Shown here: positions 310 to 58,983 of the stretch, piece by piece
Layout: the number at the start of each line of letters is the position of its first letter
Numbering within the stretch: the first letter of the stretch is position 1
Assembly: GCA_964016885.1 (NCBI GenBank)
Contig: OZ024742.1
Location: forward strand, 95,232,001 to 95,296,000
Length of the DNA: 64,000 bases
Origin: Eledone cirrhosa
Lineage: Eukaryota
Reading direction: 5' to 3'
Notes under the pieces: model-generated
The model's input: the letters and a program-made list of their open reading frames with translations, nothing else
Told to the model about the DNA's origin: nothing
Database searches by the model: none
Position numbers and translations under genes: made by a program

Positions 310-463
310 ATATATATATATATATATATATATGCAAAATTTTTATTTAAAATTGTTGGGTTACAACGAGTAAATATTTTATAACTGATATAAAGCACTC
401 AACAAGTTTTGGAGTAGATATACGATATTAAACAAATGGAAACTATATTTATAAAACCATATT

Positions 464-529
464 TATTTCATTATACATATTTCAGGGATACCATATTAAA
501 AATATGGCATGCCTTCTTCAGATAAAATA
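464..529 (-). ncRNA. Mirror copy of the hammerhead motif in the left palindrome arm
   Basis: Reverse complement of 690-755. Confidence 0.65.
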
Positions 530-689
530 CAATATATAAGCAGTTTTATAAGTAAATTTGACGTACCATAAGATATTGAACAACTTCCATTTAAAAAAGT
601 TGGTTTGGTACCAAACCAACTTTTTTAAATGGAAGTTGTTCAATATCTTATGGTACGTCAAATTTACTTATAAAACTGCTTATATATTG

Positions 690-755
690 TATTTTATCTG
701 AAGAAGGCATGCCATATATTTAATATGGTATCCCTGAAATATGTATAATGAAATA
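690..755 (+). ncRNA. Type I hammerhead ribozyme motif (minimal stem III)
   Basis: tattttat-CTGAAGA-agg..gccatat/atatggt..cct-GAAA-tatgta-TA-atgaaata; stem I 8 bp with one G-U. Confidence 0.7.
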
Positions 756-2034
756 AATATGGTTTTATAAATATAGTTTCCATTTGTTTAATATCGTATA
801 TATATATATATATATATATATATATATATATATATATATATATATCACTTCCACTGATATGGATTCTGAACACGTGGACACGCTTAGGTCACATTAAGGT
901 CAACTGCAGGAATCGATGATAAGTTACAAAAAAGTGTGATGATCAAAGACCTGGAAGTTGGCTTACCATGAGATTAGTCCAAAGAATGAAACCCAAATCG
1001 TATGTTGACGAATATTCATACTCCTGGCATGTAAACTGTAACATGCTGTCTTTGAGAGTAGAGTTTATTTTGTCAATATTTCGAGGTCTTGGATCGTGGC
1101 AAGATTAACTTCTCCCCCATTATTGACACTTTGTAACAGTGAACGTTACGAGGCCCTCTTTAGGGCCAACATTTCTGATTGTTTATCCAACTTATTATGG
1201 TGCCTTTTCTTGGGTTATGTCTACTAGAGGGGGAAAATGGGGTGGTTTTAGTGAATTACTTCAGTCACTCGAAGGACTTTACAAACGGTGATATACAGGG
1301 TGCTTGAACAGTATCTGAATATGTTCACTTGGTTATAATTTCTTCAATAATTGCGATGACTTCCTCAATTGTTCTGTGTTTGTTCTTGAGACATTATGTT
1401 TGTTATTCTTATACATAAGTTTGTTGAATAAGTTTGATACTCTTGAAGCTCAAACTTCTCCGGCTTATTCACTCTGAATGAAGAAACCTGGATAGAAGAA
1501 GGACTTATGAGTTACACAGCTATTGATAGTTCCACACAAAAAAATTGATCTGCCATAAACACATCTAGCAAAGGTTGCTATTGAAAATCCAGAATTGGCA
1601 CCTGGGGTCGCTAGCATTTTCAAACACACTCTGGGAACTGCAGTTAATATATATTTTTTGCGTATGTGTGTACAATTATCACGGAAGAACCGTCTGTGAA
1701 ACTGGACTGTGTTTGACAACATTAGGGTAGATCCTTCCACTGGTAATTGGATATACTACTTGCTCTCGATAGTCATGTGAAAAGACAGGAAGTATATGAT
1801 TGCAGTTTATCCATTTAAATATTTACACATGCTAAATTTGACATCACATCTATGTGGCTGTGTGTTATACAACAGATATGAGGCCCCATTCCCACAGATG
1901 GCTCAGTCACATTTATTCCTGTCATATTTTGCATGTATAAATGCATCACTTAAATTTATATTTATCATGAAAAACCTGAACACTTATAATATATATATAT
2001 ATATATATATATATATATATATATATATATATAT

Positions 2035-2950
2035 ACTAGCAGTGGTACCCGGCGTTGCACGGGATAAGGTATTTTGGAAGGCGGGCCGCCAACAGACCTA
2101 ATTGTGGAAAAACTACATGCCTGGACAATATGTAAAGAAAATAAACCGAATACTCTGATGGCTGGATAATCTTTAAGATTTTCCTCGATGAAGCAGGAAA
2201 AATGCAGGTTTTCACCTAATGCGGGCCCTAGGGAATCAAGGAAATGAATTTTTTTTATGTACATAATATGCCTTGAAATTCCAGGAAAATCGGCTAGACG
2301 TAACGCCTCCAAAAAGCCCTAAAAAGCTGAAATAATGAATTTTTTCACCTATTGCGGGCCCTAGGCCATACTAAAGTTGGATTTTCTTTGCTCACGGTAT
2401 GAAGAATAGACTGACTAATACATAGTTACAATTTCAAGGAAATTGGTCTGACGTACCGCCTCAAAAAACCCCTAAAAAGCTTTAAAAACGCAGTTTTTCA
2501 CCTAATGCGGGCCCTAGGAGATCAAAGAGTTGAATTTGTTTATGTCCATAACACTCTCTGCAACATAAGTAATACACATGTAAAGTTTGAAAAACATCGG
2601 TAGGGTACTTCTCGAGTTTTAGGGATTCAAACTCACAGACACACACAGACAGACATCCTCAGGGAAGTGACATAATGCAGACAGCCAGAAATACAGACAG
2701 ATATTATAAGGGCGCGACGTTATATGTATGTATCTATCTAAAAAGAGAAAGACTAAGAATTATAGAGAGAGATCGCTAAATCGCCTAATGTGGTCCCTAG
2801 GCCATTGAACATTTGAAATTTTCTTTGCTCAGAACACTCCCTGAAACATAAGTATTACATGTGTAAAGTTTGAAAACAGTCGGTTCGGTGGTTCTCGAAT
2901 TTTAGGGATTCAAACTCACACACACACAGACAAACATCCTCAGTTTTATA
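2035..2950. mobile_element. Non-autonomous Helentron/Helitron-like element (HINE/DINE-1-like)
   Basis: Begins actagcagtggtacccggcgttgcacggg (subterminal hairpin cccg..cggg); internal subrepeats ttttcacctaatgcgggccctagg (~2209, 2342, 2494); ends in CA/CAGA microsatellite + cagttttata; TA flanks. Confidence 0.55.
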
Positions 2951-2964
2951 TATATATATATTTT

Positions 2965-3240
2965 CATCATCATCAACATCACCGTTTTGCGTCCATTCTT
3001 CTACGCTAGCATGGGTTAGAATGGATGTCCTGTTGTGGGCAGTGTCCAGTCGGCTGACCCTGTCTTGATCTTATGGGAACTGATTCCGGCTTGATTTCTA
3101 CAGCTGGATGCCCTTCCTGACACCAACCTCATTTACAGTGAGTGCTGGGTGCTTTTTCCGTGGCGCCTACACGTCCACCTTACAGTGTGGGCTGGGCGCT
3201 TTTTTGCTGTGGCACCTCCACAACCACTTTGCAGTGGAAT
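2965..3240 (-). mobile_element. RTE-LINE 3' tail fragment (or SINE sharing this tail)
   Basis: (CAT)n + cgtcc..catgggtt..ggctggatgcccttcct..accaacc motif; same family as the 3' end of the LINE at 38027. Confidence 0.75.
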
Positions 3241-3259
3241 GATAGGGACCCTAGTCCTG

Positions 3260-56718: not shown

Positions 56719-56750
56719 ATATATATATATATATATATATATATATATAT

Positions 56751-57465
56751 ATATTAAGTGTAATGAATTCTTTTACAATGGAATTAGCTCAAAAGGAAAT
56801 ATTCCTGAGCCGTGTATAAAAGTAATATATATGAGTAATATATATGATGAAACAGATACCAACACATCTGTATTTATATTGCAAAAGAAAATTAGCCAGA
56901 ATGAAGAATATTAATTATTTTACCACAGTTCGTCCACATCGATTTAAAATAATAAATCGACAAAAACTAGCTGCGCTGCCAAATGGCTATGATGTTTATA
57001 CATATTTAAATTTCAAAATCAAACCTGTTCCGTAGATAAGTTTAAACCTTAAAATCCAAACATGTTTCGAGATGAATAAGTGTATAAGTGTAGGAATATC
57101 ATGCCACTGCTCTCCTCAGTAAACATCCAGAGACAATTGATAAGCTTCACTTCTACATAATTTAAAAGACTGTGTTACGCACATGGGTTCACAGATTCAA
57201 GCTAGTCTCATAACCGTACTGCTAGAAATAACAGTCGTATATATGAGGCGAATTTCAGCTCAACCAGGAGCAGTTATATTAAGTGTAATGAATTCTTTTA
57301 CAATGGAATTAGCTCAAAAGGAAATATTCCTTTTATATATAAATCGATGTGGACGAACTGTGGTAATTAATATTCTTCATTCTGGCTAATATTCTTTTGC
57401 AATATAAATACAGATGTGTTGGTATCTGTTTCATAATATATATTACTCATATATATTACTTTTAT
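56751..57465 (-). mobile_element. (TA)n-flanked pLTR-like module with direct (56751-56805/57277-57330) and inverted (56820-56945/57340-57462) repeats
   Basis: Direct reading of repeats; hammerhead inside. Confidence 0.75.
57054..57125 (-). ncRNA. Type I hammerhead motif
   Basis: gttta-CTGAGGA-gag..ctc-GAAA-catg-TT-tggat; stem I rich in G-U pairs. Confidence 0.6.
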
Positions 57466-57482
57466 ATATATATATATATATA

Positions 57483-58140
57483 GTAAATTTCTTTAAGTCG
57501 TTTGGAAGCCTCGACAATGCAGATAGGTAAATCTCCGGGTAACAAGATCCGGTGGTGGAGAGGCAGATGTAAGTGGGTGTACGTTGAGATGCGTGGCGTG
57601 TAGAAGAATGTAGGAAAGAGCGTAAAGGATAAAAATAAAAATAATAACACGAGATAGAGTTACCTTGGGAGAGATTTAATTGTCCCTATATATTTCGGAT
57701 TCACATCCATCAACTGGGTTTTTTTCCCGACGGTGGGGTGGGGAGTGGGGGGAGGTTGTCTGTCGGAAAGGTGCGAAACGTGTCCTCCGCTGTTCGTTGT
57801 TTTGAATATCTGATATTCAAAACAACGAACAGCGGAGGACACGTTTCGCACCTTTCCGACAGACAACCTCTCCCCCCCCGGAAAAAAACCAGTTGATGGA
57901 TGTGAATCCGAAATATATAGGGACAATTAAATCTCTCCCAAGGTAACTCTATCTCGTGTTATTATTTTTATTTTTTTATTTTACGCTCTTTCCTTCATTC
58001 TTCTACACGTTACAGTCTTCTACACGCCACGCATCTCAACGTACACCCACTTACATCTCTCTCTCCACCACCGGATCTTGTTGCCCGGAGATTTACCCAT
58101 CTGCATTGTCGAGGCTTCCAAACCACTTAAAGAAATTTAC
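57483..58140. repeat. Large foldback (~330-bp arms, 1-nt loop at 57811) between (TA)n tracts
   Basis: Centre ttttgaatatc-t-gatattcaaaa; arms end gtaaatttctttaag / cttaaagaaatttac; a few indels and mismatches. Confidence 0.93.
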
Positions 58141-58223
58141 CTTATTATTCCACAATGCTTCAAGCAAACTTCAATACTCTCATATATATATTTAAAAAAT
58201 AGAGGTGTGAGACACGAGTTGTG

Positions 58224-58502
58224 ATATATTAGTAAAAAGGAAAAGAAAATGCTGACAAATTTTTCCTAGTGAAAAAAAGTTTAATTAGGAATAAGTATAA
58301 ATTAGTAATAAGTATTAGTTAGTATTCAGTTTTAGTTTTAAGTTTTTACCGGTTGCGCATTTCTAATGCTTTTCAAAAATAATTTTGAGATAGAGTGCTT
58401 GAGATTTTTGCACTAATCTGATGAGAGCAAAAATCTTATTCCTAATTAAACTATTTTTCACTGGGAAAAATTTGTCAGCACTTTCTTTTCTTTTTACTAA
58501 TA
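58224..58502. repeat. ~70-bp terminal inverted repeats around a decayed U3-A8 hammerhead-like motif (58342-58380, minus)
   Basis: tattagtaaaaaggaaaagaaaatgctgacaaattttt.. vs ..aaaaatttgtcagcactttcttttctttttactaata; core TTGAAAA-gca..tgc-GCAA-ccgg-TA. Confidence 0.65.
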
Positions 58503-58932
58503 TATATATATATATATATATATATATATATATATATATATATATATATATATATATATATATATATATAACACAAATGATAAATCACCAAGTTTAACAA
58601 CTAATACATAATTTATTTGATTTGCATATTTCATTCTTCTCCACCAGCAACCTGACTCTTTACTATATCTACCCTCTACTTTCCCAGGTATTGAATACTC
58701 TGCTGAAGTATGGTCTTACCAGTTTAAACCAATATAATCCTGATCTATCTATCTATTTACCTCTTTCTCTCTCTCTCTCTCTCTCTCTCTCTCTCTGTAT
58801 ATATATATATATATATATATATAGTTATAATAATAAATTTGAAGACTAAAATCCAAGAGGGCTCGATAAGGATAAATATATATAAAATATAAAAGAACCG
58901 TAGAGCAAATATTTATTAAAATAACAGATTAA

Positions 58933-58983
58933 AGTTTAAGCAAAGAATCGCTGCTTTCACCCTTAACGGGATCTTCTGAAACT
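58933..58983 (-). ncRNA. Hammerhead-like motif, CAGAAGA core (second copy)
   Basis: Near-identical to 43259-43309. Confidence 0.55.

Follow-up and report, generated by a model that had tools for sequence, protein, structure and literature searches.

Hammerhead-bearing modules in the genome of Eledone cirrhosa: probable ends of Penelope-like elements and a candidate ribozyme with rearranged blocks

The window studied here is a stretch of 64,000 nucleotides from the genome of Eledone cirrhosa (assembly GCA_964016885.1, 3.0 Gb in 1,796 contigs; positions 95232001-95296000 of contig OZ024742.1). It contains a series of short repeat modules flanked by (TA)n, in inverted and tandem layouts, all of which are present as a first-pass annotation of this DNA had described them. 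We read these modules, with a probability of about 0.7, as the hammerhead-bearing ends of many families of Penelope-like elements (PLEs). Seven of the families have frames of reverse transcriptase (RT)/GIY-YIG type elsewhere and four are likely protein-free passengers of PLEs; in one of the latter, family K, a conserved fold with its blocks in S-G-C order is predicted to self-cleave. The reading builds on direct observation of family copies, links to open reading frames (ORFs), ends lying in (TA)n, units in tandem and helices that covary. The recognisable long ORFs of the window are fragments of PLEs or resemble long interspersed elements (LINEs), and its repeat content is presumably octopus-like.

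Type-I hammerhead folds

Hammerheads were searched for with a strict and a relaxed type-I descriptor, the latter composed after the window had been seen, and with shuffled sequences as controls. The strict descriptor finds 4 folds in the window against 0.05 in the shuffles. The relaxed descriptor finds 6 canonical folds against 0.1, and 10 against 0.8 when variant cores are included. On independent DNA, a background sample of forty 10-kb stretches taken genome-wide at round coordinates (400 kb in total), it finds 42 canonical folds against 0-2 in shuffled sequence. Given the excess in the window, the hammerhead folds of the modules are real. Comparison with shuffled sequence had been proposed in the first-pass annotation, as had covariation among genomic copies, which is found in the A-type copies (helix II, 9/17 pairs in 10 sequences; A-type only). 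The Rfam scan proposed there returned nothing of the kind: no hammerhead family occurs among the 150 of 208 matches listed for the window, nor in further Rfam runs.

Eleven sites had been named as carrying type-I folds, and eight of them pass the type-I descriptor. Five have canonical cores, at +698 (with a mirror copy at -521), -18109, +33749, -42233 and -57119. Three have variant cores that are fixed within their families: U3-A8 at +44335, and U4-to-A at -43304 and -58978. The remaining three, 19417, 27307 and 56461, fail. The first two share the core CUGAAAGA with a long irregular helix II, which is retained in the 20 matches found. At 56461 one A of GAAA is missing in the window copy and present in the other copies shown. 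Four motifs had been overlooked: J at +40939, M at -58376 and both motifs of K. A U-U at 10.1/11.1 ahead of a G-C-rich helix II is common to three unrelated families (33749; 43304/58978; 56469).

Modules with and without a Penelope-like frame

Nine families were queried by DNA, which gave 435-2,533 candidates each, with the best copies 89-100% identical; 14-30 loci were inspected per family. In other copies families A, B, C, D, F, G and J run upstream into frames of RT/GIY-YIG type. Such links were found at 4 of 14 loci for B, 2 of 14 for F and 4 of 14 for G, in 3 of 5 extended copies of A (L068-L070) and at four flanking loci for J. The links of C and D are present in the window itself, and these are the two GIY-YIG remnants that had been noticed before. 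A third GIY-YIG hit, at 41563-41779 within family K, was rejected: it came from the read-through tail of the bait, and the ORF belongs to F (96% identity). The claim that the modules are mostly non-coding thus holds for the truncated copies of the window, but not for the seven families that end RT/GIY-YIG elements elsewhere.

The families of Hydra type have the RT first, then a C-terminal endonuclease and the pseudo-long terminal repeat (pLTR) downstream; for C only the endonuclease part and the upstream similarity were observed. The hallmarks of this type, a CxCX5C linker and no CCHH, are found in A, B, D and F, and in altered form in C, where one linker cysteine is changed. Of the DKT and RWK motifs of the clade, DKT, together with RWR, was observed in D only. 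The endonucleases of G and J are of the CCHH type. At the tested 3' end (TA)n follows directly in 13/13 copies of A, 16/19 of B, 19/20 of G and 15/23 of the ORF-less family E. For D this is the case in 10/26, most of the others continuing into shared element sequence, and F gave one usable end only.

In the window, family A (335..804, - strand) is the 3' pLTR of a Hydra-type PLE together with an inverted, 5'-truncated copy, with type-I hammerheads at -521 (H17 at 472) and +698 (H17 at 747). Family B (18016..18275, -) is a solo pLTR of a Hydra-type PLE with its core at 18109 and H17 at 18064; a complete pLTR-ORF-pLTR arrangement with a period of 4,048 bp is present in locus L074. Family C (19285..27451, -) is one insertion interrupted by a LINE. 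It consists of a 3' pLTR from 19285, a long microsatellite-rich 3' region, an endonuclease remnant at 26471-26899 and an inverted 5' pLTR at 27136-27451 (+). The insertion is colinear with locus L256 (86-94%), and the atypical cores at -19495 and +27312 are the two ends of that single insertion. Family D (33180..33815, +) is the 3' end of a Hydra-type PLE, with an endonuclease frame at 33179-33562 and a hammerhead core at 33749 that has U-U at 10.1/11.1 and a helix II of 2 bp.

Family F occurs twice on the - strand, as the pLTR of a Hydra-type PLE with an inverted tail (43236..43477, core CAGAAGA at 43304) and as a second copy (58824..58989, the same core at 58978). Family G (44251..44506, +) is the 3' pLTR of a CCHH-type (Neptune/Nematis-like) PLE with a U3-A8 covariant core at 44335. 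Family J (40626..41130, +) is the pLTR of a CCHH-type PLE; its minimal hammerhead has the core at 40939, with U16.1 changed to G in the window copy, and an ORF lies upstream in L143, L165, L239/L261 and L253.

The inverted 5' pieces, the tails and the partial tandems match the structure of PLEs (PMC8557442; PMC11167929; here and below, sources on PLEs, retrozymes and rearranged ribozymes are cited from the parts available to us). From what is known of PLE biology, the endonuclease would nick (TA)n, and the RT would start inside the RNA and mostly stop early or invert, leaving pLTR stubs of 0.2-1 kb and foldbacks. Like the published Hydra clade (PMC8557442), the families seen here combine a C-terminal endonuclease of GIY-YIG type, the CxCX5C linker and the lack of CCHH with (TA)n targeting, tandem and inverted insertions and hammerheads. 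However, in the available part of that source the published Hydra PLEs are few families from aquatic invertebrates, generally below 3 kb, whereas here there are at least five abundant families and the period of B is 4 kb. The hammerheads share with those of PLE pseudo-LTRs (PMC4209133) the type-I topology, the palindromic helix III, the extra base at 9/10.1, the U3-A8 covariant core and the predominance of solo motifs from truncated elements. A fixed U-U or C-A at 10.1/11.1 (D, F, H, E), U4-to-A (F), the core of C and GCAA (M) are absent from the part of PMC4209133 available to us, and some of these core variants may already be published.

No family-linked frame was found for E, H, I and K in 14, 14, 14 and 30 loci, respectively. 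Head-to-tail units occur with periods of 518-525 bp in E, 519-531 bp in I and 445-634 bp in K, each unit with one ribozyme motif and no ORF; among the loci inspected, H was never found in tandem. E and I carry a type-I hammerhead as their motif, while the K units give no type-I match in 41192-41942. Family E (41988..42937, -) is a 525-bp tandem unit with an inverted piece and two cores, the canonical one at -42233 with C-A at 10.1/11.1, and one at -42758 in which A6 is changed to G. Family I (56755..57466, -) is a 519-531-bp unit with its core at 57119 and a weak helix I. Family H (55941..56718, +) is a foldback with its core at 56469, the one that lacks an A of GAAA. A supposed ORF link for H was rejected, as the frame in L262 is that of F and the frame in L263 lies downstream. 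Three unrelated ORF-less families have arrived at units of about 500-530 bp (41988-42937, 56755-57466, 41192-41942; L258, L260, L265), and by inspection H may have a similar one.

Alternatively, E, H, I and K could, like every other module, be truncated ends of autonomous PLEs that have longer copies outside the sampled loci, most of the folds being inactive relics. F, with its ORF in just 2 of 14 loci, and the fixed departures of several cores would fit this, as would C, which needed extended sequence because of its 2-kb 3' region. However, the units of E, I and K stand head to tail, up to 17 of them in family I (L258), with no space for an ORF, and long copies of G and F appeared within 14 loci. 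We therefore regard this explanation as quite unlikely, and keep to the reading of E, H, I and K as passengers of PLEs.

With ORF links, tandem units and (TA)n ends, the earlier proposal that many families of PLE pseudo-LTRs and retrozyme-like units co-exist in (TA)n is borne out. In E, I and K tandem transcripts may be cut once per unit into RNAs of about 520 nt, perhaps circles, which a PLE RT would copy in trans. The ORF-less head-to-tail units with one hammerhead each, co-occurring with PLEs, resemble metazoan non-LTR retrozymes (PMC7229834; bioRxiv 10.64898/2026.07.22.740005). In contrast to the retrozymes described in those parts, the units measure about 520 bp (E, I, K) instead of about 230-350, show PLE-style 5' inversions and (TA)n targets, and the window copy of K has an S-G-C motif and no type-I hammerhead.

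Some points speak against this reading. The clade assignments are motif-based and were made without an RT tree. Pfam matches one of ten proteins (G, GIY-YIG, 4e-07) and none of the nine others. Further, no sequence shared between the ORF-less and the autonomous families was found, and in the 14-30 loci inspected per family E, H, I and K showed no autonomous partner.

The S-G-C motif of family K

Family K (41192..41942, +) is an ORF-less partial tandem with a period of 634 bp and one hammerhead-like motif per unit. The blocks of the motif follow the order cleavage site, GAAA, CUGAnGA (S-G-C), which is a non-circular permutation of the hammerhead. Copy 1 (41192..41260, +) has H17 at 41203, G12 at 41220 and an intact core at 41247; its 5' end is truncated, and the upstream strand of helix II is missing along with most of the extension of helix III. 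Copy 2 (41818..41892, +) has H17 at 41837, G12 at 41854 and a core at 41881 in which A9 is changed to G. Its upstream helix II strand is at 41818-41822, helix IIIb at 41823-41828/41868-41873, helix III at 41832-41836/41857-41861 and helix I at 41838-41843/41875-41880.

The exact K pattern has 5,027 matches genome-wide and none in the reversed controls; a second pattern, from which most of K is excluded, has 895 against 4 and brings in K2, a sequence-distinct group with the same layout. Both patterns preset GAAA and the core, which lessens the weight of these counts. A descriptor of the K pairing gives 3 matches in the 400-kb sample and 0 in 25 shuffles. In metagenomes a K-like pattern has 22 matches, none of them with the pairing.

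After dropping 31 duplicates and 10 TA-truncated rows we collected 71 distinct K motifs, of which 37 fitted without gaps and were aligned; the alignment contains no inverted junctions, false matches to J, rows with indels or K2 rows that are spaced differently. In the four helices 96.6% of the cells are paired, compared with 87.0% in shuffled rows and 26-48% in slid controls. Both sides are altered in 15 of the 22 pairs, with compensatory changes in all four helices within K alone; the tallies cover sequences of related subfamilies and not independent events, so these counts are inflated. Helix I is 100% paired and 5 of its 6 pairs covary, as do 3 of the 5 pairs of helix III. RNAalifold by itself recovers helices III and IIIb.

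One could argue that the motif is a protein-binding structure (a kink-turn or box C/D-like) or an RT-recognition signal, in which hammerhead-like words stand without an active site. Helix III continues beyond a 3-by-6 internal loop, in place of which part of K2 has a 3-nt bulge; in K this loop presumably fits the kink-turn consensus, with RUGAUG and CUGA words opposite each other, and helix II is irregular. However, several features are those of a hammerhead. The predicted U16.1-A15.1 pair is kept in 36 of the 37 rows, helices III and I lie exactly one unpaired base apart, and helix I ends directly at CUGAnGA. N7 is variable (U 36, C 15) while the core is constant, which would not be allowed in a box C, and K2 keeps the layout with different stem sequences. 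We consider a purely binding role unlikely.

If the motif is catalytic, helix III would close a hairpin loop that holds the cleavage site and GAAA, and the 5' and 3' arms would pair back onto this loop to form helices II and I. The upstream strand forms helix II runs of 4-6 nt in 48 of 51 motifs, the downstream strand runs of 1-3 nt. Helix IIIb joins the distal ends of helices I and II, in a manner that differs from the extra stem of the SGC type, and some downstream pairings are visible by eye. The arms attach without a linker to the far end of helix IIIb, so that folding as a monomer requires helix III to kink, the alternative being a dimer of neighbouring units. This makes it possible, although somewhat doubtful, that catalysis in K depends on two tandem units, with blocks of neighbouring copies combining into an ordinary circular permutation (e.g. 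type II or III), as a dimer hammerhead and not as a pseudoknotted monomer. A single molecule could hardly accommodate the linker-free joint between the distal ends of helices II and IIIb unless it kinks sharply, K is present in tandem, and PLE hammerheads are believed to work as dimers (PMC4209133). On the other hand, the kink-turn-like loop or the 3-nt bulge is located where the fold-back is required, and published SGC ribozymes, which pose a similar zero-linker puzzle, cleave co-transcriptionally from single-motif templates (PMC10085705). The kink of helix III might thus permit a single-molecule fold, and failing that two neighbouring units would fold together.

The closest known system is the type-SGC ribozymes, HRIMA-1 (PMC10085705), with which K shares the order site-GAAA-CUGAnGA, pseudoknotted helices I and III, a short linker between helix I and the strand of helix II, and a size of about 80 nt. 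In the available part of that source helix II follows directly after the core with about 5 bp, whereas K has one pair after the core and 4-5 from upstream of the site; K departs from the validated SGC ribozymes because its conventional helix II is reduced to that one pair. Its helix III, extended past the kink-turn-like loop, is also unlike the published SGC structure. The rearranged ribozymes of PMC10085705 come from assembled metatranscriptomes, and the part of it available to us does not mention octopus and has Penelope only among its references. PMC13282606, on the repeats of O. vulgaris, mentions neither hammerhead nor ribozyme. We found no literature report of an S-G-C hammerhead in a retroelement or an animal genome, although supplements to the main SGC, PLE and retrozyme papers may bear on this.

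Several observations argue against the proposed mechanism. Both window copies of the motif are damaged and are matched by neither exact genome-wide pattern. The strand after the core pairs only at 11.1 (34/37), and the next pair is broken in 33/37. Copies of K, E and I begin at positions scattered along the unit, and their 5' ends do not clearly accumulate at the predicted sites; minimal PLE hammerheads are inactive as monomers and weak in vitro as dimers (PMC4209133). A pile-up of 5' ends near the K site was first apparent and disappeared once reference-edge artefacts were removed. In E, 7 of 34 5' ends lie just downstream of the predicted site, 3 of these from one duplicated locus. Monomer folding gives z = -3.5 for E and z = -0.6 for K.

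Weighing this, we see an even chance that K is an active self-cleaving ribozyme: a non-circularly permuted hammerhead with a helix II of two strands and a kink-turn in a fold-back helix III, possibly switched by a protein of the L7Ae family, which would process retrozyme RNAs of about 520 nt in thousands of copies, in a genome with roughly 200,000 hammerhead folds. Cleavage by K would mean that animal retroelements, and not only metatranscriptome RNAs, make use of non-circular hammerhead permutations, and that such ribozymes are overlooked by all type-I/II/III descriptors and here also by Rfam. Helix II would then be divisible between two strands, relaxing the block rule of Eckert et al. (PMC10085705, available part). 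The thousands of natural K variants are a ready test set.

In L253:536-3339 K units are fused directly into the endonuclease frame of F with no (TA)n at the joint, possibly by a template switch. This fusion is a single hint that the RT of F may copy K.

Density across the genome and other repeats

The background sample of 400 kb contains about one canonical fold per 10 kb (53 folds when U3-A8 cores are included). As the window has 6 per 64 kb against 42 per 400 kb in the background, it is ordinary and not dense, and the dense local fleet of hammerheads described in the first-pass annotation is the norm of this genome. It is extremely unlikely that the window is a special cluster regulating a host transcript. 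Its density equals the background, the same families are present in most loci fetched for other reasons, and its recognisable long ORFs are retroelement-like. The effect on read-through transcripts proposed in the first-pass annotation has no support here, considering also the low activity of minimal PLE hammerheads mentioned above.

One exact A-type pattern has 70,581 matches genome-wide and none in the control. The sample extrapolates to 314,000 folds in the genome (187,000-464,000). However, for the A-type pattern the sample (17 per 400 kb) implies 127,000 where 70,581 were counted; the extrapolation thus inflates a known pattern 1.8-fold, and about 175,000 folds is the safer figure. For comparison, Xenopus tropicalis has about 9,000 hammerheads (PMC4209133) and the axolotl up to 120,000 (PMC7229834). 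The numbers per genome in the available part of PMC4209133 are about 2,000-9,000, while here a single pattern already reaches at least 70,581. As to the type-I hammerheads, the biology is known and the scale is unusually large. With one fold per 10-20 kb this genome is well suited to asking what PLE hammerheads do, and the same density raises the question whether they must stay silent inside host introns.

Three further modules lie near the end of the window. Family Lm (57485..58138, no strand assigned) has inverted arms of 326 bp and no recognised hammerhead core; in locus L168 its arms flank a GIY-YIG-like remnant. Family M (58200..58505, -), likely a PLE 3' end, has its U3-A8 core at about 58376 and reads GCAA where GAAA is expected, a layout (58343-58380, -) seen in about ten copies (L195, L081, L259, L012, L134 and L140 among them). 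Module N (60725-61577), a foldback with 205-bp arms, has no hammerhead core, and the loci retrieved contain no other copy of it.

Elsewhere in the genome, a very common short foldback family flanked by (TA)n, absent from the window, is present at L094:2050-2240 and about 40 other loci. A further tandem family with a 592-bp period has a U3-A8 hammerhead in each unit (L167:559-2351, L181:3025-3104). The window also contains a dispersed 175-bp repeat (135-309, 10245-10419, 17412-17586, 25465-25639 and 37121-37295), which we take to resemble a short interspersed element with a tRNA-like head. Broken LINE copies, presumably RTE-like, are found at 3885-5860, 21300-24915, 38327-39770 and 49782-51890, two of them about 90% alike and in opposite orientation. 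Finally, a minisatellite at 29718-30160 consists of 9.2 copies of a 48-bp unit with 97% matches.

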